Notes: generated by a model from the sequence alone, not told the origin. A stretch of 32,000 nucleotides of DNA from an uncultured Chloroflexia bacterium (GCA_963718915.1 CAVRAI010000003.1:840001-872000), one strand, 5' to 3'. Counted from the first letter of the stretch, positions 6,835 to 26,378 are shown. Made by a program: numbers and translations.

Positions 6835-6900
6835 TGCTCGGCGCGGCGTGTGTCCTCGCTGGATTGCTGGTCATCCGCTACCCGGCGAAACACACGAACA
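6835..6900 (+). repeat. direct repeat copy B (displaced, orphan 3' end of the EamA gene)
   Basis: In the EamA frame it reads LLGAACVLAGLLVIRYPAKHTNMPEAD*, versus LLGAACVLAGLLVIRYPAKPANTAKAR* in the intact gene. No upstream gene body is attached. Confidence 0.88.
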
Positions 6901-6956
6901 TGCCCGAAGCCGATTGAATCGTGCGGTAATTCTCGCTGGCGCACTGCGGGCGCAGC

Positions 6957-6986
6957 TTGACAGTATGGCGGGTGATTGGGTAGAAT
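6957..6986 (+). promoter_or_regulatory. near-consensus sigma70-type promoter for tRNA-Glu
   Basis: TTGACA (6957-6962), 18 nt, TAGAAT (6981-6986), about 34 nt upstream of the tRNA 5' end. Confidence 0.5.
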
Positions 6987-7019
6987 ACAGGGCGCGGTGT
7001 AGCTAACGCCGCGACGCAT

Positions 7020-7096
7020 GGCGCATTCGTCTAGTGGCCCAGGACGCCGCCCTCTCAAGGCGGAGATCACGGGTTCGAATCCCGTATGCGCTACCA
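7020..7096 (+). tRNA. tRNA-Glu (anticodon CUC)
   Basis: Acceptor GGCGCAT/ATGCGCT (G1-U72). D arm GTCT-AGTGGCCCA-GGAC. Anticodon stem CCGCC/GGCGG with loop CTCTCAA (CTC at 7054-7056). T arm ACGGG-TTCGAAT-CCCGT. Encoded CCA at 7094-7096. Strong resemblance to bacterial tRNA-Glu. Confidence 0.92.
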
Positions 7097-7099
7097 AAA

Positions 7100-7122
7100 G
7101 CCCCACCTGCTAACGGTGGGGC
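7100..7122 (+). terminator. hairpin downstream of tRNA-Glu (possible terminator)
   Basis: GCCCCACC (7100-7107), loop TGCTAAC, GGTGGGGC (7115-7122). The downstream T-run is weak. Confidence 0.3.
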
Positions 7123-7267
7123 GCTCTCATTTCCTGAGGGCTGGAGTCTCGCCACCCCTCTCTTTCATCATGGCGTCAATCGAGCAATCTTTCCATCGCC
7201 GCGGCGGCATCCTTCTGTATGCTTGGTGGGACGTGCGCGCGCCTGGCGCTTTGGCGCAGACACGGTA

Positions 7268-7459
7268 CTAGTAGCGGTCGCTGTAGCCTTTGCCGCCATT
7301 TTGATCGGCCTCGGCTGGAGTTACCCACCAGTGGTTCTGGAGGCGCCACGGCTCATTGCGCGCCAGCACACGATAATGCGCCTGGCGCCAGGTGAACGCG
7401 CTCGGCTGACCGTCCGCGGATGTCTCGACTGCTACTGGTATGTCGATGCGCCTGGGCAT
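7268..7459 (-). CDS. hypothetical small protein (63 aa)
   Basis: The ORF lacks low-complexity character (MPRRIDIPVAVETSADGQPSAFTWRQAHYRVLARNEPWRLQNHWW...). No family assigned with confidence. Confidence 0.4.
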   Translation of the reverse strand: MPRRIDIPVAVETSADGQPSAFTWRQAHYRVLARNEPWRLQNHWWVTPAEADQNGGKGYSDRY

Positions 7460-7622
7460 GCTCTCATAACCTCCTGAACACCTCCAGCATGGCGCAGCGC
7501 TAGCTCCTCGACAAGGCGTCTTGATGTGTCACCCGCAGACAAGAGCGGCGATCGACAGGCGCAAAAATGCCCCACCGACGACACGATGTGCCGATGGGAC
7601 GATTGGATCTCGGACTGCTCGA

Positions 7623-7946
7623 TCAATGCTCGTGATCGAAGTGGGCAATGGTGCGCGCTTGCACTTCGCCAAGGGATGGCTCGGCCATTACCCACACTTC
7701 GCGGTGCTGTTGGCGGGCGTACGTCTCGGCAAGCTGGAGCGCACGTGCGCGATCTTCCGTCACGTAGGTGCTGGTTGAGTTCCAGTCAGACACGCCCAGC
7801 TCCGCTGCTTCCGCTGGGCGGGTGACGTACTCGCCACCAGGCGACCCCTTAGGGGGGTAGGTGGTCTCGCCGATGCGAACGGTGTAGAGCGTGCGGTCAG
7901 ACTGCGGCCACTTTGGCTCCTTCGGCATACTGTCAGCCATGTGCAA
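7623..7946 (-). CDS. hypothetical protein (107 aa)
   Basis: ORF with balanced composition, on the same strand as 7268-7459. No recognisable motif. Confidence 0.45.
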   Translation of the reverse strand: MHMADSMPKEPKWPQSDRTLYTVRIGETTYPPKGSPGGEYVTRPAEAAELGVSDWNSTSTYVTEDRARALQLAETYARQQHREVWVMAEPSLGEVQARTIAHFDHEH

Positions 7947-8490
7947 CCCCTTTCACGGGTTGTTGAGCGTGTCGTAGAACAGCGGGTTCGTTACATGTAA
8001 CGAACTAGCTTCCCTCGCGTTACTCTGCGTCATCATCTCCCATCCCCTCCATCGGCTCAGGGAGCGCAGCGAAGACACACCAGTGGGGCGACGCGCTGCC
8101 ACGCTGGCCACCGCCTCAATGCAAGCGGAGTGCCTGCGCCACGGGGCGGACCCTGGCAGCATACCACCATTGCAAGCATCATCATGCATTGTGCCGCATG
8201 AGGGCGCTGCTCAATCGGGAGTATTGTGTCTTCCATAGCCCGGAAGCCACCGAGGGTCGCAGGGTCGGTAGCAGGGTCGGTGGCATGGCAAGCAGCAACG
8301 TACAGCGCGGGCTGAAGCGATTGCCGCCAAATCTGCGTGAGGTGATGGATCATGTAGCGGTCGGCGTCGAGCAGGTGCACGAGGGCACGCTGATGCCTGG
8401 GCAACTCTCGGCCATGGCGGCTGGCGCTACGGCGCTCGTCAAGTTGGTTGAGGCTGCTGTTCTCGCGCCGGGGATTGAGGCGTTGCGCCT

Positions 8491-8548
8491 CCAGGACGCC
8501 GCCCTCTCAAGGCGGAGATCACGGGTTCGAATCCTATATGCGCTACCA
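8491..8548 (+). pseudogene. orphan 3' portion of tRNA-Glu (att-like direct repeat of 7039-7096)
   Basis: 56/58 identical to 7039-7096, with a 44-bp perfect run. The two mismatches (CCCGT to CCTAT) break the T stem. There is no 5' half. Confidence 0.88.
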
Positions 8549-8556
8549 CAAATAGT

Positions 8557-8586
8557 CCTGACCATCATGGTTGGGGCTTTTGTTTT
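8557..8586 (+). terminator. rho-independent terminator-like hairpin after the tRNA-Glu remnant
   Basis: CCTGACC (8557-8563), loop ATCAT, GGTTGGG (8569-8575; 7 bp including two G-U), then GCTTTTGTTTT. Confidence 0.45.
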
Positions 8587-8620
8587 ACCAATGCCGACCC
8601 ATCGCCTGGAGCTGGTTCGA

Positions 8621-8680
8621 TCATGGTGAAAGGCTGACGGTGGGGCGCTCAGGAGGTGGGTAGCGACCGCAGCTCAACCC
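8621..8680. repeat. direct repeat, left copy (displaced 3' end of the oxidoreductase gene)
   Basis: Matches 17495-17558. Perfect 19-mer cggtggggcgctcaggagg (8638-8656 vs 17516-17534) plus 12-mer tagcgaccgcag. The minus strand reads ...VELRSLPTS* (stop at 8649-8651), versus ...IDLRSLHAS* in the intact gene. Confidence 0.8.
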
Positions 8681-8819
8681 CGAAGACCTCATCAGTCAGG
8701 ACGAACTGCTCGAAACGCAGAAGTACGACGAGTTCATTCCTCTGCATCTTCTCCGCAAGGGATTTGCGTCAGACAGACGCGATGTGGAGGGGGTGAAGCG
8801 CCTTGTCGCTACGTGGTAA
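8664..8819 (+). pseudogene. possible orphan C-terminal gene fragment (51 codons, no start codon)
   Basis: Open frame RPQLNPEDLISQDELLETQKYDEFIPLHLLRKGFASDRRDVEGVKRLVATW* begins directly after a stop at the repeat boundary. It has no ATG/GTG/TTG start. Confidence 0.25.
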
Positions 8820-9120
8820 AGCGCACAGCATCACAGATGTACGTAGAAGCTGGGGTGCAAGATTGTTAGTTTGATAGGAGTGCATCGTGTAGCCGGATTG
8901 TCCTGATTGCTGCATTTCCGCTTTTCGCCATCGTTAGGGTATTCATAGTGGTGTGCATTTCCCCCAAAGAGTTGCGCGTTGTCGTACGCACGTATACCCA
9001 CTTTTCGTGCTCAGTCAGGCTCTGCCGTGATACGTGCGCCATGCAAAAAGCGCGATAGGAAATTAGCATTCCGCGAGCATTCCTGCTGAGGAAACAGCAC
9101 CAGCAGAACTGGAGGGCAGC

Positions 9121-10371
9121 ATGGCGTCATTCACTGATCTCGTCGCCAGACATATCCAGCAGCGGCAACAGGAATTTCTGGCTACACTCTCTCCAACGCC
9201 ACACAATCACACGGAAACAATCCTGGCTGAGAGCGTGCAACGATTCTGGCATCCGCTTCCGCAAGACACCGAGGATACACAGACGGAGGCGCTTCCCTCC
9301 AGTTCGGCTGCGGTTGATGGCTCGCGGGCTACGCGGGCGCTGAACGCAGGTGCTGATTGGGTCATCGCGCAGGCATTGCTCCTGGGGACGGGTGGTCTTT
9401 GCCTCACCGCAGCGGATACTGTTCTGCTCAGGGGCGACGCCGAGCGCCCAGCAGTAGATCGCTGTGCGGCCTTGTTGATGCGTTCTCTGGAACTCGACCT
9501 AGCGCTCAAATATGCTCGGAGCGGTGAAGGTGACCTGCTCTTGCTCGATGGTTCCCTTTATGCCGAGTTGCCACATTTGCTCTATCCCCTGGCTGTGCGT
9601 GGTCAGGAACAATTGCCACTGCAGGTGTTACAACGCTACCTCGACCTCTTTGAGTGCTGCCAGGAACGTGGCATAACGCTTCTAGGGGTATCCAAGAGTG
9701 CGCGGTCGAAAGCGCTTGCGCAGGCTATACTTCTCACAAGCCACACAGACACGGTTGAGGGAGATGCAAGCGCTGATGTGGCGCATGTTTCGTTACCGCA
9801 GGCGCCACGACGCGTCGCTCATGACTTCGATGAGATGATGCAACAGGCGCCAACCGATGCAGAGTTACTCCACCGTTGGACATCAGGCGCTGGGTTCAGC
9901 GATCCCATCCTGCTCGGCACCGCATCGTTTGGGCATCGACGCGAGCGAGTTCAGACAGATCCACGGCTACTCGCCGAACAGTTCCGTGGAGGTTCACTGT
10001 CTGAGACCGAGTGTCGCGCCATCTTGGAGCGATTGCGTACTGCTCCCGCCATCGGCACGTTCTACATCCGTCTTGCCCCTGGCGACGATGTGCTTCGGAT
10101 TGACGCGCCAGCCGACATCTATGGAAGAGCAGACAACCATCTGCTCGACGTCCCCCACGAGATGTTGCCATACCAGGATGCAGAGGCTCTTGTCAGATAT
10201 CTGCGTCGCGGATATGGTGGCCCCAATGTCTACAACGCCGCGCTCTATATCGTGGATCGCGAAGTCCGTCTGCACGCACAGACGGTCGATCACCTGTATC
10301 TTTCGCTCTTGCGACGGCAGCTTGACATTCCGATTCGATTTGACCGCTCGACGCTGCGATTTGTTCAGTAG
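9121..10371 (+). CDS. nurA: NurA-like 5'-3' nuclease
   Basis: NurA-type motifs in order: AVDGSRA, SLELDLAL, LLLLDGSLY, LLGVSKSARSK, YNAALYIVDREVR. GGAGGG lies 5 nt upstream of the ATG. Confidence 0.75.
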   Translation: MASFTDLVARHIQQRQQEFLATLSPTPHNHTETILAESVQRFWHPLPQDTEDTQTEALPSSSAAVDGSRATRALNAGADWVIAQALLLGTGGLCLTAADTVLLRGDAERPAVDRCAALLMRSLELDLALKYARSGEGDLLLLDGSLYAELPHLLYPLAVRGQEQLPLQVLQRYLDLFECCQERGITLLGVSKSARSKALAQAILLTSHTDTVEGDASADVAHVSLPQAPRRVAHDFDEMMQQAPTDAELLHRWTSGAGFSDPILLGTASFGHRRERVQTDPRLLAEQFRGGSLSETECRAILERLRTAPAIGTFYIRLAPGDDVLRIDAPADIYGRADNHLLDVPHEMLPYQDAEALVRYLRRGYGGPNVYNAALYIVDREVRLHAQTVDHLYLSLLRRQLDIPIRFDRSTLRFVQ

Positions 10372-10392
10372 CAGCTCAGCAGCAGCTCAGCA
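10371..10392. repeat. 11-bp x2 tandem repeat at the nurA stop
   Basis: GCAGCTCAGCA GCAGCTCAGCA, starting in the last base of the TAG stop codon. Confidence 0.85.
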
Positions 10393-10412
10393 GAGACGCT
10401 TGAGAACGCCCC

Positions 10413-10451
10413 GATGGAGGACAGTGATGGAGGACAGTGATGGAGGACAGT
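10413..10451. repeat. 13-bp x3 tandem repeat, each unit carrying GGAGGA plus ATG
   Basis: GATGGAGGACAGT x3, followed by a partial fourth unit (ATGGAG). ATGs at 10414, 10427 and 10440 fall in three different frames. Confidence 0.9.
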
Positions 10452-12155
10452 ATGGAGCGCCAACTATCTTCTCTCTATGGTCTGGAAGCAGGATTCATTG
10501 TAGGTGAGACCAATCCACTGGAGTTCACCTTCGTCAGCAGTCGCGAGATGCTCCCTCCCCGTCTGGAATATTTGATTGTTCCGGGCGTCGAAGAGCGTAC
10601 TGCGTTATCTGGTACAGAAGCACAACCAAAACGAGTGGATGTACTAGCACAGGTGACTGAGGTAGGCATCGACTCCGCCGTTCTCTCCGAACGCCTGACG
10701 TATGACGAGGCGCTGGCAATCCTGCGAGGAGCCTACGCGCCACCGCCTAAGATGTACGGACGCGCGCGTGTCATTGGCTATCTCGCGGGCCAGACAGTGC
10801 GCGTACCCCGTTGCGCGGCGAGTCCAGGGAGCACTGTCTATGTCGCGCCGGATGCCTTTCTGCAACGTTTCTTCAGCCAAGAGATCAATGCGGGCATCGA
10901 CCTGGGAACGCTCATCAATCGCCCTGAAGTGCCTGTTCTCCTTGACCCAAACGGCCTGCGTCGTCATCTGGCCATCATTGCGCAGACGGGGGCAGGCAAA
11001 TCGTATCTGGCGGGAAAACTCTTCGAGAGCCTCCTCCAATTGGGAGCGACCATTTTCGTCTTTGATCCTAACTCTGACTACGTTCAGTTGCGAAAGGTGG
11101 CCAGACAAGAGCAGCAGCCGTATGACGCCGCAGAGAGAACCGCATTTGCCGATGACATTGCGATCTACCGAATTCCAGGGATCCAGGGTAGACGTTTTCC
11201 CGATGCGATAATAGGGCCAACCAGCGATTTTACCGTCCGTTTCTCCGATCTCGACGCAGATGAAATCAGTGTACTGGTTGGCATATCCGAACGCGCAACC
11301 AACTTGCGTGGAGCCGTCAACCGGGCATGCGCCCAACTGAGGCAACGCAACATTGACTATCGTCCGGCGGAACTGATCGCAGAACTACAGGGCCGCAACA
11401 ACGAACCTCCGACCGAGGAAGAAGACAAATCCGCAGATGACAATCCGCTTGGGCAGGAAGATAGGCAGACGGCATACAAGGCTGCGCGCTATATCGAGCG
11501 ATTGAAAGACCTCGCGGTGTGGGGGTATCAGGACGTGGATATCGAGCCGTTGCTAGCCCCACAGCATCTGACCGTGTTCGACCTCGCTGGAGCAGATAAG
11601 ATGGTGGCCGCCTACGCCGCCGAACGCACCCTGCGTGAGATTTGGCAGCGCGCACTCAGGGGGAAGTTGAATCACCCCGTCTTCATTGTGCTGGAAGAGG
11701 CGCACAACCTCATCCCAGCGGCTGGCAATACCCGCGCCAGTCGTATCATCAATACCATCGCTGCCGAGGGCCGAAAGTTTCGCGTCTTCCTGACACTCAT
11801 CACCCAGAGACCCAGTAAGGTCAATCCAGATACACTCTCGCAATGCGGCAGCCAGATTATTATGCAACTCACCAATCCCGATGACCAGCGCGCTGTGCAG
11901 AAAGCATCAGAGGCTATCTCTGCTGAACTGCTAGCGGATCTTCCGGGATTGAATAAAGGCGAGGCTATTGTACTCGGCCAGTTGACACGCATCCCGGTGA
12001 TGCTCTCTGTCTCTGGGCGAGCATCAGCCGAAGGTGGAAGCGATATAGATGTCGTGCAGGAACTCAAACGCGCGGCACTCGCCAGGGGTACTCAACGCGC
12101 GGCCCAGGAGATGCGCGGGCGAGGGGCAGTCGCCCGTCAACGTGAGGAATGGTGA
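10437..12155 (+). CDS. herA: HerA/FtsK-class hexameric ATPase (DUF87/HerA-like)
   Basis: N-terminal barrel-like region. Walker A IIAQTGAGKSY (about 10981-11010). Walker B VFIVLEEAHNLIP. LITQRPSKVNPDTLSQCGSQIIMQLTNPDD. In-frame starts at GTG 10437, ATG 10440 and ATG 10452. Confidence 0.88.
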   Translation: MMEDSMERQLSSLYGLEAGFIVGETNPLEFTFVSSREMLPPRLEYLIVPGVEERTALSGTEAQPKRVDVLAQVTEVGIDSAVLSERLTYDEALAILRGAYAPPPKMYGRARVIGYLAGQTVRVPRCAASPGSTVYVAPDAFLQRFFSQEINAGIDLGTLINRPEVPVLLDPNGLRRHLAIIAQTGAGKSYLAGKLFESLLQLGATIFVFDPNSDYVQLRKVARQEQQPYDAAERTAFADDIAIYRIPGIQGRRFPDAIIGPTSDFTVRFSDLDADEISVLVGISERATNLRGAVNRACAQLRQRNIDYRPAELIAELQGRNNEPPTEEEDKSADDNPLGQEDRQTAYKAARYIERLKDLAVWGYQDVDIEPLLAPQHLTVFDLAGADKMVAAYAAERTLREIWQRALRGKLNHPVFIVLEEAHNLIPAAGNTRASRIINTIAAEGRKFRVFLTLITQRPSKVNPDTLSQCGSQIIMQLTNPDDQRAVQKASEAISAELLADLPGLNKGEAIVLGQLTRIPVMLSVSGRASAEGGSDIDVVQELKRAALARGTQRAAQEMRGRGAVARQREEW

Positions 12156-12217
12156 CGGTTAGGAGTCGACCGAGCGCTGGCGAGATGACTTGTTTGTGAT
12201 GAGAGGGATGGAGCAGG

Positions 12218-13204
12218 ATGGGTGATCTGGATAGCCGCGAAAATCCTGGTGAGACTCGGCAACGTGAGCGGGAACATGAAGATATGTGGACGAATGATAT
12301 TTTGCGGGTGGTGGTGACGGCCGACAACCATCTTTCTGCATTTACACCTAAACTCTCTCCACAACGACTGAGCGAACGTCGGCAACGGCTGCGCAGGGCA
12401 TTCGCGCGGGTGGTGGATGAGGCTATTGCCCGGCAGGCCCATCTGTTCATCCAGGCAGGCGATCTTTTCGACAGCATCGAGCCACGCAATCTGGAGCGCG
12501 AATTCGTCGCCGCACAGCTTGCGCGCCTGCATTCGGCTGGTATTCAGACATTCGGCATCAGTGGCAATCATGATACGCCACGCCAGCGTACTGAGCATGG
12601 TGGTTTCGCTCCTCAGGGTATCTATGCCGAACTTGGGGGTATTCACTACTTCCCTGAATCGGACTGCATCAAGCCCGTTCTGGTTGAGGCGGCACGTATG
12701 CGCGTAGCGGTGGCAGGTCTGAGTTGTAATCCAGGTGCGGCGCCCGGAGGCGATCCGCTCGATGATGTGGTGACAGAAGACCCGGATGGCAACCTGGCGC
12801 GTGCAGATGTTGGTATCCTGATACTGCATGCGGCTATCGAGGGTCATGGCTTTCCCAGCGAAGATGAGTTATTCGTCCGACGAGCGAGCATCGAGCGTAT
12901 CACAGGCTTCAAGCTGATCCTTGCGGGACATGTTCATGCCTACGCGCGATTCGACGTAGCCAACAAGTCCGTGGTAGTGTGTGGCCCTACGGCGCGTATG
13001 AGCTTTGGCGAGGCGGAGGACAAAACGGGCTTTGCTTATCTGGAGCTTCGCCACGATGGACGCTTCCATTCCGAGCATGTTGCCATTCCCTCTCAGCCAC
13101 GGCATATTGTGACAATCCAAACGTCCGAACTCTGGCCCCAACAACAGCAGCAGATTCTGACACCATCAGATCGCATGACGATCACCGACTGCCGACGCTG
13201 CTGA
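12218..13204 (+). CDS. Mre11/SbcD-family metallophosphoesterase nuclease domain (ends prematurely relative to family architecture)
   Basis: All phosphoesterase motifs are present: VVTADNHL, QAGDLFD, GISGNHD, ILILHAAIEG, LAGHVHAY. GGAG lies 5 nt upstream of ATG 12218. Stop at 13202-13204 after a Q-rich stretch. Confidence 0.85.
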   Translation: MGDLDSRENPGETRQREREHEDMWTNDILRVVVTADNHLSAFTPKLSPQRLSERRQRLRRAFARVVDEAIARQAHLFIQAGDLFDSIEPRNLEREFVAAQLARLHSAGIQTFGISGNHDTPRQRTEHGGFAPQGIYAELGGIHYFPESDCIKPVLVEAARMRVAVAGLSCNPGAAPGGDPLDDVVTEDPDGNLARADVGILILHAAIEGHGFPSEDELFVRRASIERITGFKLILAGHVHAYARFDVANKSVVVCGPTARMSFGEAEDKTGFAYLELRHDGRFHSEHVAIPSQPRHIVTIQTSELWPQQQQQILTPSDRMTITDCRRC

Positions 13205-13358
13205 TGTATCTGGCATATCTGCCGCAGTAGCGCCATCCGATGCGCCATCAGCAACCTATCCGCCGGATGCTGTCCAGGACATCACAGCGCTTCCAGGCTC
13301 TGATTCTACACGTCCTGCCGCAGACACTGCGGAAGCTGAGGATACCGTACACCGAGCA

Positions 13359-13724
13359 ATGCAGGTGATTCTCGATCGGATCAGGCCGTACTGTACCCCT
13401 GACGCGATGGTACGGCTCTGCCTCACAGGTCCGATTTCTCGCGAGCGCTACCGCGCACTTGATCTGCGCAAAGTTTGGCTTATCGCGCAACATCAGGCGT
13501 TCTCGTTTGAACTCGATGAGTCTGGCCTCTTTCTGGTCGAGCAGGGATCGCAGGAGCAGGTGGTTCGTGGTGAGCGCATCGCGCCGCGTGAGATGCTGGA
13601 GCAGGTCATGGGAGCCTGGATGGATCGTGCCAAGACAACTGCTGAACGCACGCTTTTGGCAAAGACTCGCGAACGAGTTCTCACATTATACGAGCAGTTA
13701 ACGGGGGGGGAAGCGACGCGATGA
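13359..13724 (+). CDS. Mre11 C-terminal (capping/Rad50-binding-like) domain encoded as a separate ORF in another frame
   Basis: VILDRIRPYCTPDAMVRLCLTGPISRERYRALDL... resembles the region that follows the nuclease core in single-chain Mre11/SbcD homologues. This frame is open from 13179. Its stop overlaps the next gene's start (ATGA at 13721-13724). Confidence 0.55.
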   Translation: MQVILDRIRPYCTPDAMVRLCLTGPISRERYRALDLRKVWLIAQHQAFSFELDESGLFLVEQGSQEQVVRGERIAPREMLEQVMGAWMDRAKTTAERTLLAKTRERVLTLYEQLTGGEATR

Positions 13725-16700
13725 TTACGCTCCGACATCTGCATGTGGAGAACTTTAAGGGGCTGGATAGCGTAGACCTCTCCTTCCCTGAACAGGGCAG
13801 CATCCTCATCGAAGGCCATAACGAAGCAGGAAAGTCAACCCTTTTCGAGGCAGTCTATGTCGCACTCTATGGTGAGCCTTTAGTCGGCGAGGACAATCGC
13901 CCACGTCTTGAGGAGGTCATCAAGCATGGTCAGCCGCAGGCGCTGGTCGAATTGACCTTCGCCGTCAGCACCGAGCAACTCACGATACGCCGTGTCTTGA
14001 GACGGGAACAACCTCAACAGGCGCGGCTTACTATCCGCCAACCCAATGGTCATGAGGAGACTGTCAATCGTCCCACCGCCGTCAATCGACGCATCCTGCA
14101 AGAGTTGAACAATTTGGACGGCGATAATCTGCGCAACTCGTGCTTCGTCGAGCAGAAGGAACTGGGACGGCTGGAGGACATGAATCCCAGCAGGCGTGAG
14201 CAGGCAATCCAAAGCCTCCTGGGACTTGAGCGATTGACAAAGCTCTCAGACCAGTTCAAGTTCAAGCGCGAGCAGGAACGCGAGCTAGATCATGCACGGC
14301 GTCTACTCGAACTGGCCTACGCGCAACAGGATGTACGGGTGCTGGTGGTGGAAGAGCAGGCGGCTGCTGAACGTCTCGATGCCACGAGGATTGCCGCGCA
14401 ACTCACAGAATGCGCTGCGCTTGAAGAACAGCAGACGGCTCTCCGGGAGCAGTCGCAGGCAAATGTATTCCGTGAGACCGATCTACGCGGGCGGCTGGAG
14501 TATGCTGGCCGCATACGCGGCCAGGTTTCCAGGTGCAATGTGGTGCAGCAGCAACTGGAAAGAGCGACTGCTCAAAGGGAAACTGTAGAGCGGTTGAAGG
14601 GGAAGCTGGCAGAGATGGATGCCATCGAGCGCCAGGCAATACCCGAAACGAGAACACAACTCGACCGAACCTTGACGGCGCTCAAGTTGGTGGTTGACGC
14701 CGAAGAAAAGCGCATGGCAGTGCATGATGCTACTGGCATTGAGCAAGAAGCGCTACGTGCCGTTGCAGAGCTTGAACGGGCTAAAGAGGTCGTGCGTCAA
14801 CGGGCAGAAACGCTGGATATATCACGTGCGCGAGCGAATCAACACCGCAAGGAAGCAGCTTCGTCGCGCGAACAAAACCAGCGACAACTCGCGATACTGA
14901 GCGCTCGACATAATCAGTTGAGCCATATGCTTGAGTTGGTTATGGCATGGGAGCATAAACGCGACGCATTAGAGGCAGTGCGTCAGCAGATTCGTGATGC
15001 AGAGAAGAATGCGCAAAGGCTCCTGGAGCTTCGCGCTACCCTACTGCAGCGAGAAGAGACAGCCCACCAAGCGGTAGGTAGAGCGGAACAAGCGGAACGT
15101 AAGCGTCAACAGGCGGAGTCGCACCGGCGACAATCAGAGGGATATGAAGCGCTGCACGAGTGGATACGCCTGAAGGAGGTTGAGGCCTCGCTCTCCGGCT
15201 TTGCGCAGGATCGCACCACAATGGAAGCGGAGCGCCAACAGGCCACCGCTGCGTATGCGAGCGCCCAGGCGCGAGCGCGCGGGTTATTGTACCAAACAGC
15301 GGCCACTATGCTGCTGGCAATGATTGCTCTCGTAGCCGGAGCTATTCTATCCCCCTGGCTATTGGTCATTGGAGCTATCCTTGGAGTAGTGGCTATCTTC
15401 CGTGGTGGCGGCTATTGGCGTTCTCGCGTTGCGACGACAGCGGGTAAACAGGCAGTCGAGAGCGTGGCGAACAAGCTTCGCGAGCTCACAATGCGCTATC
15501 AGGCGGCGGTGCATGCTGGGGGTGATCCTGCCCAGCTCGGTCAGCGTGAGCGTGCCCTTACCGCAGCAGGATTCGCAGTCCCCTCGTCGCTTGATGCTGC
15601 GCGTAATCTACTGGCCAGGCTGTCTGCGGAAGGGATCATAGACTATCAGCGTGCAAGGGTGTCAGCAGATGAAGCGGTGACGACACTGGCCCGATTGAAG
15701 GCCGAGGCAGAGCGAGCACAAGGCGATGTCGATCAGACCAGGGTGGCGCTGCACAACCTTGAAGAGCAGGGTGATGCGTCTGTAATGCTGCGTGAACTCC
15801 ACATACGTGAGACCCAGGAGAGCAAAGCAGCCGAAGCTGCTGAGGCAACGGCTCGCGAGGCTACGAAAGGGGAATTGTCATGGCCGACGAATCAAGCTCA
15901 GATCGACATGGCGGCTGCGGCATGTCAGGCGGAGCAACAAACCATTCAGCGCACAATGGCTGATGCGGAAGCCCAGACAAGGCGCATAGAGCATGACGAT
16001 GAAGATGCTATCGCGCAAGCACACCAAGTACTTAGAACCGCTGAGGACGCTGTTGCGGTATTGCAGATGCCTGATCCTCAGGCAATGCTTACGGATGCGC
16101 AGGCAAATCTTGTCCATGCCGAAGAACTCGCGCGCGCAGCTGAAACGCAGTCGCAGTTGGCTGTTCGGGGCATGGGATTATCGCCCGAACGGACGGCAGT
16201 CGAGGCGGCGCGTGGGCGAGTAGAGGAGCGTCTGCGGAACCTGGAAAGCCAACTGACAACCCGGCCAGCGGTTGAAACTGCGTTCACTAACGCACAAACG
16301 ACATATGCAGACATGCTGCAGAAAGCGAGCAATGCGCTCCTGGCAATCGTGGAATCAGCCCGTTCACTTGCAATCGCATCGCTTCAAGGCGTCGCGGCGC
16401 TTGAAGATCAGGCCGCGCGTGAGCGTCCGTTGGCCGCCAGGCTAGACGAGGTGTGTGCTGCCCTCGTATCTGCGCTCACCGAGCTTCATGAGGCAGATGC
16501 ACAGACTGAGCTAGAGCGCCTCCTGCATGAGAAGGGGACACTGAACCAGCGCCTACAGTCTATGGAGAGTCAACTTGCCTCTATTGAGGGGGACATCCAG
16601 AGTATCTTGGCGGCGCGTCACCTCCCTACGCCTACCCAATATACTGCTACGGCATTGGCTGCTGTGTGGCCGTTGATCGGAACAGCCTCGGCTCACGAGC

Positions 16701-17440
16701 TTGATCGTATGCAACTGGAACTTGAGCAAGTTCGCAACCGCCACTTCGCAGCGCGTGATCGGGAGCATCGCCTGACCGAAATACTTGGTGATCCAGGGGT
16801 GGAACTCGAGGTCGAGGCGTGTGGCCATCGCGTCCAAGAACTCGATGAGGAGCGAGCCATCTGCCAGCACGCCATCGGCATAATCCAGGAGACTCGTGAT
16901 CGCATTGCTCGGCAGGTTCTGCCGACCACAGAACGCAATATGGAATTGTTGCTTCGTGAACTTACCATGCACCGCTACTGGAGCGTTCGATTGACACCAC
17001 CTGCCAGCGAAGAGAGGCAGCTCAACCAGCTTGATTACCGCATTCGTGTATGGGATCAGACAGCCCAGCGCTATGTTGCCAAGAATCTCTTCTCTGGAGG
17101 TACACGAGATCAATGTTCCCTGGCATTGCGGCTCGCCTTTGCTCTGGCGACTCTCCCACAGGAGCTAGGCATTGCGCCTGGTTTCATTTTTCTGGATGAG
17201 CCATTGAGCGCCTTCGATGCCCAGCGTGCGCAAGCACTTGTGAATCTGCTCACGACAGGAATCATTGCTCAGCAGTTCGCCCAGGTCGTGGTCATCTCGC
17301 ATCAGCATGCGTTTGATCGCAACGCATTTCAGTATCATATTCGTATGGATAGTGGCCAAGTCGTCGAGAGCGATCTCCCAGTGATGCCCAGCCACTCTTT
17401 GCAACGCACGCCTATGAAAGCCTCTAGTGCGCGTGCGTGA
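13721..17440 (+). CDS. Rad50/SbcC-like SMC-type ATPase with central hydrophobic hairpin
   Basis: Walker A GHNEAGKSTLFEAV. Q-loop FVEQKELG. More than 800 aa of heptad-like E/Q/R/A-rich sequence. Signature FSGGTRDQCSLALRLA. Walker B FIFLDEPLSAFD. H-loop VVISHQH. Hydrophobic block TAATMLLAMIALVAGAILSPWLLVIGAILGVVAIF at residues ~526-560. Confidence 0.9.
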   Translation: MITLRHLHVENFKGLDSVDLSFPEQGSILIEGHNEAGKSTLFEAVYVALYGEPLVGEDNRPRLEEVIKHGQPQALVELTFAVSTEQLTIRRVLRREQPQQARLTIRQPNGHEETVNRPTAVNRRILQELNNLDGDNLRNSCFVEQKELGRLEDMNPSRREQAIQSLLGLERLTKLSDQFKFKREQERELDHARRLLELAYAQQDVRVLVVEEQAAAERLDATRIAAQLTECAALEEQQTALREQSQANVFRETDLRGRLEYAGRIRGQVSRCNVVQQQLERATAQRETVERLKGKLAEMDAIERQAIPETRTQLDRTLTALKLVVDAEEKRMAVHDATGIEQEALRAVAELERAKEVVRQRAETLDISRARANQHRKEAASSREQNQRQLAILSARHNQLSHMLELVMAWEHKRDALEAVRQQIRDAEKNAQRLLELRATLLQREETAHQAVGRAEQAERKRQQAESHRRQSEGYEALHEWIRLKEVEASLSGFAQDRTTMEAERQQATAAYASAQARARGLLYQTAATMLLAMIALVAGAILSPWLLVIGAILGVVAIFRGGGYWRSRVATTAGKQAVESVANKLRELTMRYQAAVHAGGDPAQLGQRERALTAAGFAVPSSLDAARNLLARLSAEGIIDYQRARVSADEAVTTLARLKAEAERAQGDVDQTRVALHNLEEQGDASVMLRELHIRETQESKAAEAAEATAREATKGELSWPTNQAQIDMAAAACQAEQQTIQRTMADAEAQTRRIEHDDEDAIAQAHQVLRTAEDAVAVLQMPDPQAMLTDAQANLVHAEELARAAETQSQLAVRGMGLSPERTAVEAARGRVEERLRNLESQLTTRPAVETAFTNAQTTYADMLQKASNALLAIVESARSLAIASLQGVAALEDQAARERPLAARLDEVCAALVSALTELHEADAQTELERLLHEKGTLNQRLQSMESQLASIEGDIQSILAARHLPTPTQYTATALAAVWPLIGTASAHELDRMQLELEQVRNRHFAARDREHRLTEILGDPGVELEVEACGHRVQELDEERAICQHAIGIIQETRDRIARQVLPTTERNMELLLRELTMHRYWSVRLTPPASEERQLNQLDYRIRVWDQTAQRYVAKNLFSGGTRDQCSLALRLAFALATLPQELGIAPGFIFLDEPLSAFDAQRAQALVNLLTTGIIAQQFAQVVVISHQHAFDRNAFQYHIRMDSGQVVESDLPVMPSHSLQRTPMKASSARA

Positions 17441-17494
17441 TGCCGTCGTATCAGTGTTGCGCCCTTCCCTACCCATCGTCTGTAGCCGATACGG

Positions 17495-17558
17495 TCATGG
17501 TGGCGGAAGGCTACGCGGTGGGGCGCTCAGGAGGCGTGTAGCGACCGCAGGTCAATCC
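17495..17558. repeat. direct repeat, right copy (functional 3' end of the oxidoreductase gene plus flank)
   Basis: See 8621-8680. Includes the stop codon at 17527-17529. Confidence 0.8.
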
Positions 17559-18786
17559 GCTCGTCGGCCAGGTCGGCGTCCGAGACGCGAACGCGCGCGC
17601 GAATCAGTTCCTGGCATGCGTGTAGCTCGGAGTCGGCCTCGATTTCTGGATCGCCGCCACGGTTCAGCCCGAACACCGCCTGGATGATGCCCTGCGTCAG
17701 GTAGAAGACCAGGAACTTCCGGCTCTCGAAGGTCCCACGAAGCACAATCTTTTCCCAGGTTCGGGCGAACCCTACGTACTCGATGTTGTGCTCAAATTGA
17801 TCCGACCAGAAGCTGTAGATATAGTCATAGGCCTGGGGATCGCCCAGCACGGCGCGGGCGACGGCGCGGCCCTGGCGTTCGGCGTTGTTGTAGTGCTCCA
17901 CCCGCAGACGCCCGAAGACCGGATGCTGGATATTGGCCACATCGCCCGCCGCGAAGACATCGGGCATGTTCGTCCGGCACTGCGCGTCGACGAGAATGCC
18001 GTTATTCAGGGCAATCGCACTCCCCGTGAGCGCATCCACGTCTGGCGCGATGCCGATGCCCACGACCACCAGATCGCATTCCAGCCGCGCGCCTGTCCCG
18101 GTCAGCACGCGCTCCACCCGGCCGTTGCCCTCGATGCCGGTCACGTGCTCCTGTGTGACCAGTCTCACCCCGTGCTCACGATGAATCGCCGCCAGCACCG
18201 AAGCGACCTCAGGGCCAAGCACTTTGACGAGCGGCGCTGCCCCAGGGAGCACGACGGTCACGTCGAGACCCATCTGCCGGAGCGAGGCCGCAACCTCGGC
18301 GCCGATGAATCCCATGCCGACGACGACCACTCGCGCGCCGGGATGGGCCGCCTGACGAATCGCCTCGCACTCCGCGACCGTGCGCAGCTGATAGACGCCT
18401 GGCAAGGACGCTCCTGGCACGTCAAAACGCTGATTCTTGCCACCTGTGCAGAGGATCAGCCTGTCATAGCGCATGGCATCGCCGCTCGCAAGGTGGAGCT
18501 GCCTGAGGTCGGTGTCGATGCGTTCCACGCTGACCCCGGTGCGGAACTCGATATCGTGCGCGCCGTACCAGTCCGCCGGCCTGACATACCAGGCGCTGAG
18601 ATCTTCCTCGCCGCGCAGATAGGTCTTGGAGAGCGGTGGTCGGCCAAATGGGATGCCCGGCTCCCTGCCCAGCAGGACGATGCGGCCACGCCACCCCTCT
18701 TCGCGCAGAGTTACCGCTGCGTTGCCACCCGCCAGACCCGCGCCGAGAATCACGATGGTCTGCTCACTCCTTGCGTCTGCGTTCAT
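17527..18786 (-). CDS. FAD-dependent pyridine nucleotide-disulfide oxidoreductase (ferredoxin-reductase type)
   Basis: TIVILGAGLAGG (FAD GxGxxG), VVVVGMGFIGAEVA (NAD(P) GxGxxG), AAGDVA, and a C-terminal reductase domain. ATG at 18786 is preceded by AAAGGAG and is preferred over the ORF-track start at 18885. Confidence 0.85.
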   Translation of the reverse strand: MNADARSEQTIVILGAGLAGGNAAVTLREEGWRGRIVLLGREPGIPFGRPPLSKTYLRGEEDLSAWYVRPADWYGAHDIEFRTGVSVERIDTDLRQLHLASGDAMRYDRLILCTGGKNQRFDVPGASLPGVYQLRTVAECEAIRQAAHPGARVVVVGMGFIGAEVAASLRQMGLDVTVVLPGAAPLVKVLGPEVASVLAAIHREHGVRLVTQEHVTGIEGNGRVERVLTGTGARLECDLVVVGIGIAPDVDALTGSAIALNNGILVDAQCRTNMPDVFAAGDVANIQHPVFGRLRVEHYNNAERQGRAVARAVLGDPQAYDYIYSFWSDQFEHNIEYVGFARTWEKIVLRGTFESRKFLVFYLTQGIIQAVFGLNRGGDPEIEADSELHACQELIRARVRVSDADLADERIDLRSLHAS

Positions 18787-18979
18787 GGCGGCGCTCCTTT
18801 CGAGTCGAGAAAACGAATGGTCTGGTGTCTGCATCGCGCGAGACTCTCCTTCACTATTCCACGTTGCATGCCACGGATACTCCACAGCAAAGGAGTCTCC
18901 CCCGCACGCATGCTATACTCTACACAGGAAATGGAGAACAGCCTGACAACGGCCTGAAGGCGCCCGAAGTGAGTGTGAT

Positions 18980-19804
18980 GTGACGACGCTGCCCCATATC
19001 GTCCCAGCAGGCCCTATCCGGCTGGTCGCAACCGATCTGGATGGGACGCTGCTCCGCACGGACGGCTCCATTTCCGCGCGCACTCGCGCCCTGCTGGCTT
19101 CTTTGCGCCAGCGCGACATTCCGCTGGTCATGGTCTCGGCTCGCCCGCCGCGCTCGCTCCGCCAGATTGGCGACGATATCGGCGTTGAGGCTATTGCTAT
19201 CGGTTGCAATGGCGCGCTGATCTATGACGCCAGCACCGAGACCATTCTCGATCACTGGCCGCTCTCGTCGGAGGTGGCTACGCGGCTCGTCACCGATCTG
19301 CGCCAGCGCCTGCCAGACGCCTGCTTTGCCATCGAGAACGGCTTTCACTACGGCTGGGAGCGCGGCTACCTGGCGATACGAGGCAGGCCGCCGGAGGATG
19401 AGCGCCTGATCGACGACGCTCTGGCTCTCTGCCGCGTGCCCGTCTCCAAGCTGCTGATGCGCCATCCCACGCTTGACGCCGACGCGATGCTGGCGATAGG
19501 GCGCGCGGTTGCGGGCGAGGATGCGGTGGCGACCCATTCGGGCGCGCGGCTTTTGGAGTTCTCCGCCTCCGGTGTTGATAAAGCCGCGGCGCTGGCCGCT
19601 CTTTGCGCGCGCCTGGGCATCGCGCCCGCGCAGGTCGTGGCGTTCGGTGATATGCCCAACGACGTCCCGATGCTACGCTGGGCGGGCATGGGTATCGCCG
19701 TCGCCAATGCGCATGTCGAGGCGCTCTCGGTAGCCGACATGGTGACCGCCAGCAACGACGAGGACGGCGTAGCGGTAGCGCTGGAAACGCTGTTGGCAAG
19801 TTAA
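18980..19804 (+). CDS. Cof-type HAD-IIB family hydrolase
   Basis: Motif I ATDLDGTLL, motif II VSARP, motif III/IV FGDMPNDVPM. GTG start. Confidence 0.85.
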   Translation: MTTLPHIVPAGPIRLVATDLDGTLLRTDGSISARTRALLASLRQRDIPLVMVSARPPRSLRQIGDDIGVEAIAIGCNGALIYDASTETILDHWPLSSEVATRLVTDLRQRLPDACFAIENGFHYGWERGYLAIRGRPPEDERLIDDALALCRVPVSKLLMRHPTLDADAMLAIGRAVAGEDAVATHSGARLLEFSASGVDKAAALAALCARLGIAPAQVVAFGDMPNDVPMLRWAGMGIAVANAHVEALSVADMVTASNDEDGVAVALETLLAS

Positions 19805-19886
19805 TCATGCCTTCAGTCATCCTCGCAATGCGTCAACCGGCCTCAAATGCACCAATGATTATTCGGGAAAATTGGGCGTTGACAAC

Positions 19887-19915
19887 TTCACACTGGACGA
19901 AGGCTCCGCTATAGA
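19887..19915 (+). promoter_or_regulatory. candidate promoter upstream of the vWA gene
   Basis: TTCACA (19887-19892), 17 nt, TATAGA (19910-19915). Downstream leader contains an 8-bp inverted repeat, CAGGGTTG/CAACCCTG. Pattern match only. Confidence 0.3.
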
Positions 19916-20039
19916 TACATAATCCACAGTGCAGGGTTGCCCACAATCAGCGGTTTGCCTGGAAGAAAAACAACCCTGGCGGTCAAACCAGCGTAGAGAA
20001 TACCAAACGGCCTTGGATATCAGGGTAAGAGGGTCGCTT

Positions 20040-22616
20040 GTGATTCGAATAGTGAGCAAACAACGATCACGGCTTGGCATGACAGCACGACGGCTTCTTG
20101 CTGTTATGTCACTCGGCATTCTTGTAGTCACTCTATCTCCGCTCGCTTCTCTCTCTGTCCTTGCGCAGCCAGCCAGTTCCATCGCGCCGACAGCGTCCGC
20201 GCCTGCTGGCCATGTCACGATCCTCGTCCTCGATATGTCCGGCTCGATGGGCAGCAACGATCCGAATGGATTGCGCTGCTCGGCGGCTAACGCCTATATC
20301 GATTTGAGCGGGCCGGGCGATTTCGTCGGCGTCGTCGGTCTGGATAACACCGGCCCGACGGGCGGCGCGCATAACTTCCCGCTGGCGCAGGTATGGGCCG
20401 AGCCGAGTGAAATGGCGACGGTTGCCGCGCGCGCGCAACTGCATAACACCATCGCTACGAAGTCCCATAACTGCAAGCCCGACTCCGCGACCCCCACCTA
20501 CGACGCCTTGCAACGAGCGCTGACGATGCTCACGGCATCCACCGCGCAGACGCATCTGCCCGGCTCCGTCATCCTGCTGACCGATGGCGTGCCCGCGCCA
20601 CAACAGAACGAGCAGATCAGCGCGATCCAGACCGACCTCGTGCCGCAGTTCAAGCAGCGCGACTTTCCGGTTGATACGGTGGCCCTTGGCGCGGACGGCA
20701 CGCTGCGGTCGTTCCTGAGCGACCTCGCCAACGCGACGGGCGGCGCGTACTATGACGATGGACACGGCGTGGTCAGTGGCGTCTCGCCCTTGAACATCGC
20801 GCCCTTCTTTGTCAGCATCTTCGCCCAGCGCAATGGCCGCACGGTGACGCATGACATCCCGCCGACAGCGCTTTCCGGCGGCACGGTCTCGCGGAACTTC
20901 TCTATCGGCGCCTTTGTCTCGCATCTCGATGTCGTCGCCGTCAAAGACTCACCTGCTACGCGCGTGACGCTGACCGCGCCCAACGGCCAAGTCTTGCCGC
21001 CAGCGGTCGCCGGAACATTTATCTCCAGCGACCCTCATTACGTCATCTTCAGTGTGGATCATCCGCAGAGTGGGGCATGGCAACTGAATGTGACTGGCTC
21101 CGGGCGCTTCCTGATGGATAGCCTCAAGCTCTCGACCCTCGGCCTGAGCATCCTCGCGCCCGCCTCGGACACGCCAGAGCCGCTGGGCCAGCCGCTGACG
21201 GTGAGCGCGACGCTCAACGACAATGGCACGCCGATCACTGGCAGCCGCTATAGCATGAACGGAACGATTGCCTACAGCGGCGGCACGGGTAGCTATACGC
21301 AGGAGTTCGTGCTGGACGACCACGCCAGCCCGGGTACCTATGCCGCGCAGATTACGATTCCGCCCAGCGCGCCCGCTGGAACCTATAACGTCACGATCAA
21401 CGCGCGCGAGGTGAGCGATACCATCGCCAGCGCCAATCGTCTGGTCCGCATCGAACTCTTCCCATCGCCGCTGCTCGTCGCTCCCTCCACCGGCAAGCTC
21501 ACCACCGATACCGTCGCCACGAGCGAGACCCTGTGGGATCCCGCACTGCGCGCGATCTATAGCGTGCCGTTTGGGGTGCTGACCTGGCTCAGTGGCTGGC
21601 CGTTGCAGGGGCATCCGGTGGTGGACGGCGCGCGGCTCGACGGCGCGGTTCAGCTCGACGGCAAACCGTATGCTAACGCCAGCGTCAGCGGCTTGGCCAC
21701 ACGCGATGGCTCGAAGACGGCGATCCCGCTGCATATCGCGCCTGGCGAGAACGGGCGCTTCACGGCGGCCTTTACGCCCAGCGGTGACGGCCAGTACGCG
21801 CTGACGTTCAGGACGCTGGGCAGTTTCAAGGATTCGCATGGCGACCTCGGCACGACCACCCGCACGGTGGCGCTCAAGACGCAGCCCGCCTCGCTCGCGC
21901 AGGAGGCCATCGCCTGGGCCATTACGTTGCTATATCTCGCCATCCTCGTGCTGATTGTGCTGCTGATCCGCTATGCCATCTCGCAGAAGCCGTTCGGACG
22001 ATTGGTCTCCAACGACGGCGGAGGCGGCGAGGAGTTCTCCCGCGCACGTCGCGGGCTATTTGGGCTGCTGCATCCGGGCACGGTGCTCTCGCAGCAGATG
22101 GGGCTTGACCCCGGCCTGATCTTCAGCTTCCGGCGCGGCAACCGCATCACCGTCGAGGGCAACGGCGGCGGTCGGCGGGCCTACCGGCTTGGCGGCGAGC
22201 CGCTCCCCACCAGCCCCGTCCCTGCCGCGGAGTCGCTGCTGACGACCAACGAGGGGATGTCCTATACGGTGAGCGCGTCGAGTAGCGATGAGTTCCTGGA
22301 CGAAGAAGAGGGCACGCGGCGCGGCGGACTGCTGCGCCGCAAATCGGCCAGCGACGACTACTTTGACGATGACGACGCTCGTGGGCGGCGCGGTCTGTTC
22401 GGGCGGCGGTCGCGTGGCGACGACTACGATGACGAGGGGAATCGCGGCAGCCGACGTAAATCGCGGCGCGCGCGGGACGACTACGACGATATGGACGACG
22501 ACGGCCCCTCGCGCTCGCGCGGTGGTTCGCGTGGCCGTTCGCATGGCGATGATTTTGACGACTATTCTTCAGGCGGGCGATCCAGGAAATCGCGGCGGCG
22601 CGATGATGACTATTGA
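20040..22616 (+). CDS. exported von Willebrand factor A (vWA) domain protein with a single C-terminal TM helix and a charged disordered cytoplasmic tail
   Basis: GTG 20040 is preceded by AAGAGGG; ATG 20079 is an alternative start. Signal-peptide-like MTARRLLAVMSLGILVVTLSPLASLSVLAQP. MIDAS motif VLDMSGSMGS, TPTYDAL, ILLTDG. Long beta-rich ectodomain. TM helix AIAWAITLLYLAILVLIVLLIRYAI. R/D-rich tail. Confidence 0.85.
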   Translation: MIRIVSKQRSRLGMTARRLLAVMSLGILVVTLSPLASLSVLAQPASSIAPTASAPAGHVTILVLDMSGSMGSNDPNGLRCSAANAYIDLSGPGDFVGVVGLDNTGPTGGAHNFPLAQVWAEPSEMATVAARAQLHNTIATKSHNCKPDSATPTYDALQRALTMLTASTAQTHLPGSVILLTDGVPAPQQNEQISAIQTDLVPQFKQRDFPVDTVALGADGTLRSFLSDLANATGGAYYDDGHGVVSGVSPLNIAPFFVSIFAQRNGRTVTHDIPPTALSGGTVSRNFSIGAFVSHLDVVAVKDSPATRVTLTAPNGQVLPPAVAGTFISSDPHYVIFSVDHPQSGAWQLNVTGSGRFLMDSLKLSTLGLSILAPASDTPEPLGQPLTVSATLNDNGTPITGSRYSMNGTIAYSGGTGSYTQEFVLDDHASPGTYAAQITIPPSAPAGTYNVTINAREVSDTIASANRLVRIELFPSPLLVAPSTGKLTTDTVATSETLWDPALRAIYSVPFGVLTWLSGWPLQGHPVVDGARLDGAVQLDGKPYANASVSGLATRDGSKTAIPLHIAPGENGRFTAAFTPSGDGQYALTFRTLGSFKDSHGDLGTTTRTVALKTQPASLAQEAIAWAITLLYLAILVLIVLLIRYAISQKPFGRLVSNDGGGGEEFSRARRGLFGLLHPGTVLSQQMGLDPGLIFSFRRGNRITVEGNGGGRRAYRLGGEPLPTSPVPAAESLLTTNEGMSYTVSASSSDEFLDEEEGTRRGGLLRRKSASDDYFDDDDARGRRGLFGRRSRGDDYDDEGNRGSRRKSRRARDDYDDMDDDGPSRSRGGSRGRSHGDDFDDYSSGGRSRKSRRRDDDY

Positions 22617-22688
22617 CTGCCAGTTTGCGCGATAATCGCCTCGCTGGCAAACGGCCAGGCGAGGAGCAGCTTATAGATATGTAGACAA

Positions 22689-26096: not shown

Positions 26097-26378
26097 GTGG
26101 CAACCTCGACGCCGATTCGCTTCCGACCAACGATCGTCCTCTGTGTGGGCGACCGTGGCCGCGAGGTGGGCGCGCAACTCTCCATGCTCTTGCCAGGGCT
26201 GGATGGCGCGCGTCAGGCGGGTATCGCGCTGCTCACGGTCGATGACGACGCGACGATGACGGCGCGTTGCTCGGCGCCTGGTACGATCCGGGCCTCAGCG
26301 CCGTCGCCAGCCTACCCGGCCCCCTACCCGACGATACGCCCATCAGCATTGATCGCCGCCCGTTACCAACCCTCGTGA
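26097..26378 (+). CDS. probable true 5' end of the downstream tubulin-like paralogue, in a different frame (only the first ~55 codons look genuine)
   Basis: GTG 26097 has AAGGAG 6 nt upstream. PTIVLCVGDRGREVGAQLSMLL...AGIALLTVDDD aligns with LNIFLGSTPAYSALEMMRQLVHL...RVALVFLDIDS of the upstream paralogue. Confidence 0.4.
   Translation: MATSTPIRFRPTIVLCVGDRGREVGAQLSMLLPGLDGARQAGIALLTVDDDATMTARCSAPGTIRASAPSPAYPAPYPTIRPSALIAARYQPS

Follow-up and report, generated by a model that had tools for sequence, protein, structure and literature searches.

The window analysed here is a stretch of 32,000 nucleotides, one strand, from an uncultured Chloroflexia bacterium (GCA_963718915.1 CAVRAI010000003.1:840001-872000), and the feature of interest is a nurA-herA-mre11-rad50 cassette that lies between two imperfect direct repeats, beside the 3' end of an oxidoreductase gene. 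Positions are counted from the first letter of the window. The cassette consists of nurA (9121-10371; Pfam NurA, 9.1e-18), herA (10437-12155; Pfam DUF87/HerA, 5.9e-32), an mre11-like phosphoesterase gene (12218-13724; Pfam Metallophos) and a rad50/sbcC-like SMC ATPase gene (13721-17440; Pfam AAA_23, SMC_N and SbcC_Walker_B), all on the plus strand. With four co-oriented genes that carry NurA, HerA (DUF87), Mre11 (Metallophos) and Rad50 (SMC) domains, the block qualifies as an operon of this type, and the Pfam results bear out the gene content that a sequence-only reading of the window had placed between the repeats. The mre11 gene is split by an extra C at 13183 (ATGACGAT[C]ACCG), outside any homopolymer run, leaving open reading frames (ORFs) at 12218-13204 and 13359-13724; the additional base is either a true frameshift or an assembly error. 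Comparison with PADLOC returned no complete system for the four-gene block: NurA and Mre11 matched nothing, and HerA and Rad50 matched only HerA-family, mad8/mad3, LmuB and other ATPase models.

Convergent with rad50, and with its stop 87 nt from that of rad50, is a gene for a ferredoxin-reductase-type FAD oxidoreductase (17527-18885, minus strand; Pfam Pyr_redox_2 and Reductase_C). The ORF that opens at GTG 18885 spans 452 aa. However, the orthologues in the database are all of 419 aa, and the true start is therefore probably ATG 18786, which gives the same length. The nearest orthologues belong to Ktedonobacterales metagenome-assembled genomes, with amino acid identities of 89% in locus L001 and 85% in locus L009. 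The genes upstream of the oxidoreductase, encoding a VWA protein, a tubulin-like protein and a large hypothetical protein, are kept in both of these loci, and the downstream contexts vary among relatives.

Gapped alignment places the direct repeats at 8594-8680 and 17468-17558 (80% identity over 91 columns, E 2.5e-18), so that they are present as first described and longer. They comprise the last ~30 nt of the oxidoreductase coding sequence (CDS) together with ~58 nt of 3' untranslated region (UTR). The details given earlier were likewise recovered, namely a perfect 19-mer (CGGTGGGGCGCTCAGGAGG, 8638-8656 and 17516-17534), a perfect 12-mer (tagcgaccgcag, 8661-8672 and 17539-17550), a 43-nt block (8638-8680 and 17516-17558) in which the repeat finder counts 39/43 identical positions (91%), and a stop codon in each copy. 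The right copy (17468-17558, minus strand; stop at 17527-17529, ...IDLRSLHAS*) is the functional end of the oxidoreductase gene with 58 nt of 3' UTR. The left copy (8594-8680, minus strand), delimited by repeat finder and alignment, holds 3' UTR at 8594-8648, a stop at 8649-8651 and the last 29 nt of CDS up to 8680, and it remains in frame (VELRSLPTS*) with no oxidoreductase body upstream; it is 92% identical to L001 over 52 nt. The contrast between a real gene end on the right and an orphan end on the left was upheld by Pfam, tblastn and blastn, the latter two finding, as oxidoreductase remnants in 6900-9200, only the left copy and a third copy of 13-18 nt that is discussed below.

The perfect 19-mer inside a less similar repeat could suggest the core of a crossover site. 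In the 32 kb of the window it has only its two matches even when up to 3 mismatches are allowed, against 0.02 expected from shuffles, and outside it the similarity of the repeats runs for ~25 nt on one side and ~45 nt on the other. It occurs once at the oxidoreductase stop in each of L001, L083, L084, L085 and L087, and in the orthologue alignment no other part of the gene end is as well conserved. Its matches are thus confined to oxidoreductase stops in five orthologous loci and the window, which rules out the dispersed repeat that had been named as a possible objection. Because the same sequence is conserved at the stops of orthologues, the fact that both copies hold it without a mismatch does not speak for a crossover core; from the alignments the 19-mer is a conserved gene end, and as an att core it is only putative.

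The position of the left copy becomes intelligible by comparison with L009, where the oxidoreductase stop runs directly into a homologue of window 8628-8537 (78% over 99 nt, E 4e-13). The matching stretch consists of the spacer, the tRNA terminator hairpin and the last 18 nt of tRNA-Glu, and in the window it is represented in part by an intrinsic-terminator-like hairpin with a T-run (8554-8586, plus strand), which is that of the original tRNA-Glu and is conserved in L009. Judged by this alignment, L009 is an empty site that lacks the insert, with the oxidoreductase stop abutting the tRNA-Glu side directly, as had been predicted. The L009 arrangement implies an ancestral order of tRNA-Glu, terminator and convergent oxidoreductase. 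Since L009 joins the stop directly to the flank with which the left copy is contiguous, the left copy is the displaced native gene end, and on this point too the sequence-only reading holds. No terminator-like site was found between rad50 and the oxidoreductase stop (17441-17526), and the two transcripts may overlap because the original terminator remained with the left copy.

In L009 itself (11354-11445), just the last 18 nt of tRNA-Glu stand beside the terminator, and the DNA that comes next is unrelated. The next 7 kb beside this remnant yielded no integrase, and the same tRNA-Glu seems to have served another insertion there.

The closest counterpart of the cassette was found through HerA, homologues of which are common in Ktedonobacteria at 65-77% identity, a single one (P0001) reaching 95%. 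The contigs of P0001 are L081 and L082, with L170-L173 for the far side; L081 1-20973 and L170 1-23776 represent one Logan contig family of ~30 kb, drawn from 14 samples. Window 8674-17413 aligns with L081 7496-16232 at 91% over 8780 nt, with a patchy continuation to 17468. At the protein level the identities are 91% for NurA (dN/dS 0.16), 94-95% for HerA against P0001/L081 and 83.5% for Rad50, and the mre11 gene of L081 is intact (502 aa). Synonymous divergence of the cassette from L081 is 0.15-0.26, and nurA, herA and rad50 are intact in the window with dN/dS of 0.16-0.32. The upstream region of the cassette is preserved, and the cassette, the frameshifted mre11 excepted, probably still works as an end-resection module.

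In L081/L170 the cassette is internal to an island of ~30 kb with the order tRNA-Glu 3' end, a 48-aa ORF, sngABC, the cassette, Druantia I, AbiEii/AbiEi and a tRNA-Glu remnant. The near tRNA-Glu 3' end (L081 1-30) is 100% identical to window 7066-7095, and the far 3' remnant, of ~22 nt and with a hairpin, lies at L170 224-252, so that ~21-nt repeats of the tRNA-Glu 3' end bracket the whole island. PADLOC identifies Shango (SngA 4e-68, SngB 5e-187, and SngC 3.2e-253 as a full gene of 762 aa), type I Druantia (DruE1 with E = 0 and DruD 4.5e-13, plus two unknown genes) and AbiEi and AbiEii, all of these matches to named proteins being full-length. No integrase was present among the called genes of the island. 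Known systems bracketed by tRNA 3'-end repeats are what characterizes a tRNA-integrated defence island, and this one is a standard tRNA-borne example. No oxidoreductase-like sequence borders the cassette in L081/L170.

Alignment with this island sets the bounds of the insert at about 8674-8681 on the left and 17468 on the right (~8.8 kb). The earlier proposal of an island of ~8.9 kb at 8650-17516 was thus right in placing an insertion at the oxidoreductase 3' end and wrong in its limits. On the left, a three-way alignment shows island homology starting at 8674 and repeat homology ending at 8680, with an overlap that constitutes a 7-nt microhomology (TCAACCC, 8674-8680); the counterparts are TCAATCC in the right-copy oxidoreductase end and TCAAGCC in sngC of L081. 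Position -30 of the oxidoreductase gene is here fused to the last 145 nt of sngC. The resulting remnant (8674-8819, plus strand) holds the last ~48 codons of the Shango helicase gene, identified by alignment to L081 and, by tblastx, also matching the helicase end in L088/L089, while the gene body is absent upstream. It is followed by the sngC-nurA intergenic region (8820-9120, plus strand, by alignment to L081), which was carried with the fragment and presumably holds the cassette promoter; no consensus promoter was called within it. The remnant and intergenic region together (8674-9130), which look neutral, are 93.9% identical to L081. A weak in-frame similarity that would extend the left copy beyond 8680 with a 6-nt indel was considered and rejected, since that stretch matches the sngC end of L081 at 91% identity, which leaves chance, or part of the microhomology patch, as the source of the similarity. 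On the right, the island-derived 3' UTR of rad50 (17441-17468, plus strand, by alignment to L081), ending in ...GCGCCCTTCC, is fused at 17468/17469 to the oxidoreductase 3' UTR at position +58.

The composition of the DNA agrees with these limits, G+C being 0.571 in the insert, 0.57 throughout the source island and 0.604, 0.623 and 0.639 in the window flanks. The agreement, to within a few bases, of the G+C and homology boundaries with the repeat also bears on the possibility that the arrangement is a chimeric join in a metagenome-assembled contig. The assembly does come from an uncultured lineage, the sole 100% match to the oxidoreductase is on one contig, and the mre11 frameshift could be a sequencing error. 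However, a repeat of 87-91 nt with 80% identity and indels is not one that would confuse an assembler, the sequence at both junctions is unique, and the differences of the left copy from the right are common to real orthologues. An artefact is accordingly regarded as extremely improbable.

Between the repeats Pfam gives NurA, HerA, Metallophos and SMC/Rad50 only, and no recombinase or transposase domain, in agreement with the earlier statement that no integrase is left inside; no recombinase domain was detected by Pfam in the ORFs of the flanks or of the neighbouring segment J (7097-8490, described below), and the repeat finder returned no terminal inverted repeats pairing the insert ends. A transposon or insertion sequence was therefore ruled out, in view of the missing transposase domain, the missing paired inverted repeats and a flanking duplication that is both long (87-91 nt) and imperfect.

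Another candidate is the one originally put forward, a discrete site-specific element that integrated at a core in the oxidoreductase 3' end, brought a surrogate end with it and has since lost its integrase or used one in trans. The topology fits, with direct repeats, a displaced end at the far junction and the empty site in L009; the 19-mer is perfect within a less similar repeat, the two copies are as diverged as different alleles would be, and the neighbouring tRNA-Glu is a proven integration hotspot. Conversely, a recombinase is absent both in and beside the insert, and the 19-mer is conserved in all orthologues with similarity extending to both sides of it. Moreover, the left end of the insert is a truncated sngC joined at a microhomology, and in the nearest relative the same DNA is internal to the 30-kb island and has no oxidoreductase-like borders. 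In L081/L170, as in L088/L089, the homologous DNA has a full sngC on its left and runs on into other genes on its right. Nor was a second instance seen in ~60 cassette loci. Of the marks of an integrative element, then, the empty site was found, and a recombinase and reproducible ends were not. We consider such an element very unlikely, and the part of the sequence-only reading that had it bring a replacement end is not supported. The divergence of the copies leans towards one of them having been brought in, which would not require an integrase.

Because one end of the insert lies inside sngC and the homologous DNA continues in L081, the insert is an arbitrary piece of a larger island. The comparisons identify it as an insertion relative to an L009-like ancestor, of DNA from a Shango-adjacent island context. 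The features expected of illegitimate or homology-facilitated capture, a microhomology at the joint and a truncated gene at the fragment end, were both found. We therefore favour, at slightly better than even probability, a reading in which the insert is non-autonomous, a piece of a larger defence island with tRNA-Glu as its integration site, and was captured independently of any recombinase by a combination of illegitimate and homologous recombination; the recombinase-independent joining is the part of this reading that we infer.

The starting point would have been an L009-like locus, with tRNA-Glu and its terminator abutting the convergent oxidoreductase gene. By the most likely and most economical route, an island-bearing allele would have recombined with an island-free allele of the same tRNA-Glu/oxidoreductase locus, with one crossover by homology, within or close to the oxidoreductase end, and a second, illegitimate one at TCAAnCC, that is, by homology-facilitated illegitimate recombination (HFIR). 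Equivalently, a circular fragment carrying a homologue of the oxidoreductase end could have entered by Campbell-type recombination, with the same product. Either route would leave the fragment between two gene-end copies of ~88 nt, one from each parental allele.

The divergence of the two copies bears directly on this outcome. Compared over the first 50 nt and over 90 nt, they have identities of 0.87 and 0.77, and the corresponding values for either copy against orthologues of other species (L009 excluded) are 0.83-0.90 and 0.70-0.75, so that the left and right copies are no more alike than orthologues from different species. Over a 14-nt stretch of the UTR the left copy is identical to L009 while the right copy carries 4 changes, and in a 3-4-nt indel the right copy agrees with L083 and L086. 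A duplication made at the time of insertion cannot predate the split from L081, to which the non-coding DNA of the insert is still 94% identical, and on that ground the divergence leans towards two parental alleles; as far as the alignments of the copies go, it fits these better than a fresh target duplication. As to the change of parental allele that would be expected at the homologous side, the right-copy UTR does differ from the L009-like left copy, but the oxidoreductase gene itself shows no breakpoint.

Several observations weigh against capture by this mechanism. No breakpoint within the oxidoreductase gene is visible in sliding-window identity to 4 orthologues, and no donor or intermediate allele with rad50 beside an oxidoreductase gene was found; for both reasons the mechanism remains something that we infer. 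The microhomology at the right junction amounts to just ~2 nt. The argument from divergence rests on fewer than 100 nt, and beyond the island the L081 genome has a gene other than the oxidoreductase. Furthermore, both copies have the derived codon CTA in place of the CTC found in all orthologues, which hints, as a sequence character, at common descent or gene conversion of the copies. Finally, a third copy of the oxidoreductase UTR beside tRNA-Glu is unaccounted for, and no model tested explains all three copies.

This third copy belongs to the region between the intact tRNA-Glu and the insert, where the locus holds further layers. The intact tRNA-Glu(CTC) lies at 7020-7096 (plus strand, ARAGORN), with a promoter-like site at 6957-6986 (11/12 match). 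It is followed by a bidirectional terminator-like hairpin of a perfect 8 bp (7100-7122), the 3' arm of which is part of the third copy. That copy, a partial duplicate of the stop-proximal 3' UTR of the oxidoreductase, begins 12 nt past the intact tRNA-Glu and occupies 7109-7126, followed by TCA at 7127-7129; it matches 8633-8650 at 17/18 positions, with 0 matches expected from 100 shuffles. Further on, at 8491-8551 (plus strand), is a displaced 3' portion of tRNA-Glu, which starts at the anticodon stem, ends with CCA and is 95% identical to 7039-7099; ARAGORN called no tRNA at 8491-8551. The repeat pair 7039-7099/8491-8551 (58-61 nt, 95% identity) brackets segment J (7097-8490, 1.39 kb), the only gene content of which is a truncated DUF6504 ORF (7268-7459, minus strand). 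No integrase was found in J, nor any homologue of it in the fetched loci. A bracket such as the one around J is what a tRNA-integrated element in decay classically shows.

The layering of this region is among the arguments for a purely intragenomic origin of the arrangement. On that account the full island would once have stood between tRNA-Glu and the oxidoreductase gene, and unequal crossing-over or template switching at TCAAnCC would have duplicated everything between the sngC remnant and position -30 of the oxidoreductase; Shango, Druantia/AbiE and the second tRNA remnant would later have been deleted, and the gene-end copies would have diverged in place. The orientation of the cassette and its nearness to tRNA-Glu are as in L081, the microhomology at the junction and the derived CTA codon in both copies fit, and the divergence of the copies, 13-23%, lies within the range of the cassette dS against L081 (0.15-0.26). 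The locus is, moreover, a visible palimpsest with three copies of the oxidoreductase UTR and two of the tRNA 3' end. However, at least three events are required, and the copies have diverged more than the non-coding DNA of the insert has from L081 (6%), although the duplication cannot predate that split. The exact match of the left copy to L009 over the 14-nt UTR stretch, against 4 changes in the right copy, also speaks against it, as does the fact that J and the window flanks have nothing in common with the island, neither blastn nor tblastx giving any similarity to L081/L170. An intragenomic origin is regarded as rather unlikely.

Given the third UTR copy beside the intact tRNA, J is, like the cassette, flanked by a long imperfect duplication of the tRNA-Glu/oxidoreductase spacer. 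Both duplications (91/161 nt for J and 87/91 nt for the cassette) would be explained if the spacer served as 'portable homology', such that circular island fragments carrying a piece of it re-enter relatives by Campbell-type recombination and the cassette is a bona fide mobile module. We rate this extension as quite unlikely. If it were true, nurA-herA-mre11-rad50 could serve anti-phage defence or the island's own recombination.

Retention of the cassette next to Shango is not peculiar to L081, since the linkage recurs in L088/L089, so that it is kept at both 95% and 75% HerA identity. The gene order of the cassette is kept in most of 82 loci screened (L088-L169) and in more than 40 Chloroflexota loci. 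In none of these 82 loci does an oxidoreductase gene adjoin the cassette, and none of 18 loci scanned has an adjoining tRNA gene. A metagenome scan with a HerA alignment gave 80 loci, all lacking both the oxidoreductase gene and the junction; a metagenome scan with NurA as the query gave no matches. The window-type unit of truncated sngC and cassette, or its junction, is absent from the other ~60 cassette loci, of which three contexts are known from called genes only, and from ~90 oxidoreductase loci. Elsewhere, IS110 and TniQ/TniB genes are nearby, the cassette of L175 stands among housekeeping genes, and that of L174, from the cultured Ktedonobacter strain SOSP1-85, has UvrD-like and HSP70-like genes upstream and a TerB_N gene 4.6 kb downstream.

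On the far side of the oxidoreductase gene, between it and the VWA gene, the stretch 18919-20030 contains a 205-aa ORF that has no Pfam or PADLOC match and is not conserved. The corresponding spot is occupied by a 1067-aa Guanylate_cyc/AAA_16 gene in L001 and L083 and by nothing in L086, and it is a second variable spot beside the oxidoreductase gene. Beyond it, at 19929-28762, follow three large genes, for a VWA-domain protein (895 aa), a Tubulin_2-family protein (917 aa) and a protein of 831 aa without domain match, all of which have 84-93% identity in L001, L009, L083 and L086.

In relation to known systems, the locus most resembles capture by HFIR, the mechanism of which is described in PMC3240628, or by Campbell-type entry: homology joins one side and a few bases of microhomology the other, the genes at the ends are truncated, and no recombinase is involved. 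It departs from the described cases in several respects. The experiments that demonstrated HFIR concerned small fragments, in competent species and in conjugating E. coli, whereas here the mechanism is only proposed, for 8.8 kb in an uncultured member of the Ktedonobacterales. The oxidoreductase comparison gave no location for the homologous side of the join, and the duplicated segment of ~88 nt is retained where a deletion in the recipient might be expected. Islands and prophages that integrate at gene 3' ends share with the insert the direct repeats of a gene 3' end, the displaced end at the far junction and the empty site in relatives. That signature is exact at the adjacent tRNA-Glu, with the 58-61-nt repeat around J and the ~21-nt repeat around the 30-kb island of L081/L170. 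The insert, in contrast, has no integrase, its ends are not reproducible and one is in a truncated gene, and its repeat is long, gapped and only 80% identical.

Shango is a system of TerB, ATPase and helicase (PMC10250203). Defence islands with Shango, Druantia I and AbiE are matched by the source island, which stands at a tRNA hotspot and has full-length PADLOC matches, whereas the window has only the tail of sngC and the four-gene block, and no complete known defence system was moved. The nurA-herA-mre11-rad50 end-resection operon is known in thermophilic archaea (PMC3326311 and PMC4641729), and a bacterial NurA-HerA pair is the subject of PMC9960219. The operon of the window resembles the archaeal type in its four domain families and single co-oriented arrangement; it differs in its bacterial host and its frameshifted mre11, and in that it stands between defence systems in the nearest lineages and among housekeeping genes in others.

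The event itself is ordinary genome plasticity and opens no long-standing question, and the locus is an ordinary case with some local complexity. It nevertheless provides an instance, in uncultured Ktedonobacterales, of a piece of a tRNA-borne defence island re-lodged next door without a recombinase of its own, and for that reason flanking direct repeats of a gene end are not sufficient to call an integrative element. The presence of the end-resection operon as a passenger in a Shango/Druantia/AbiE island in some Ktedonobacterales offers a clue to the spread of this operon among bacteria and to a possible link with defence.

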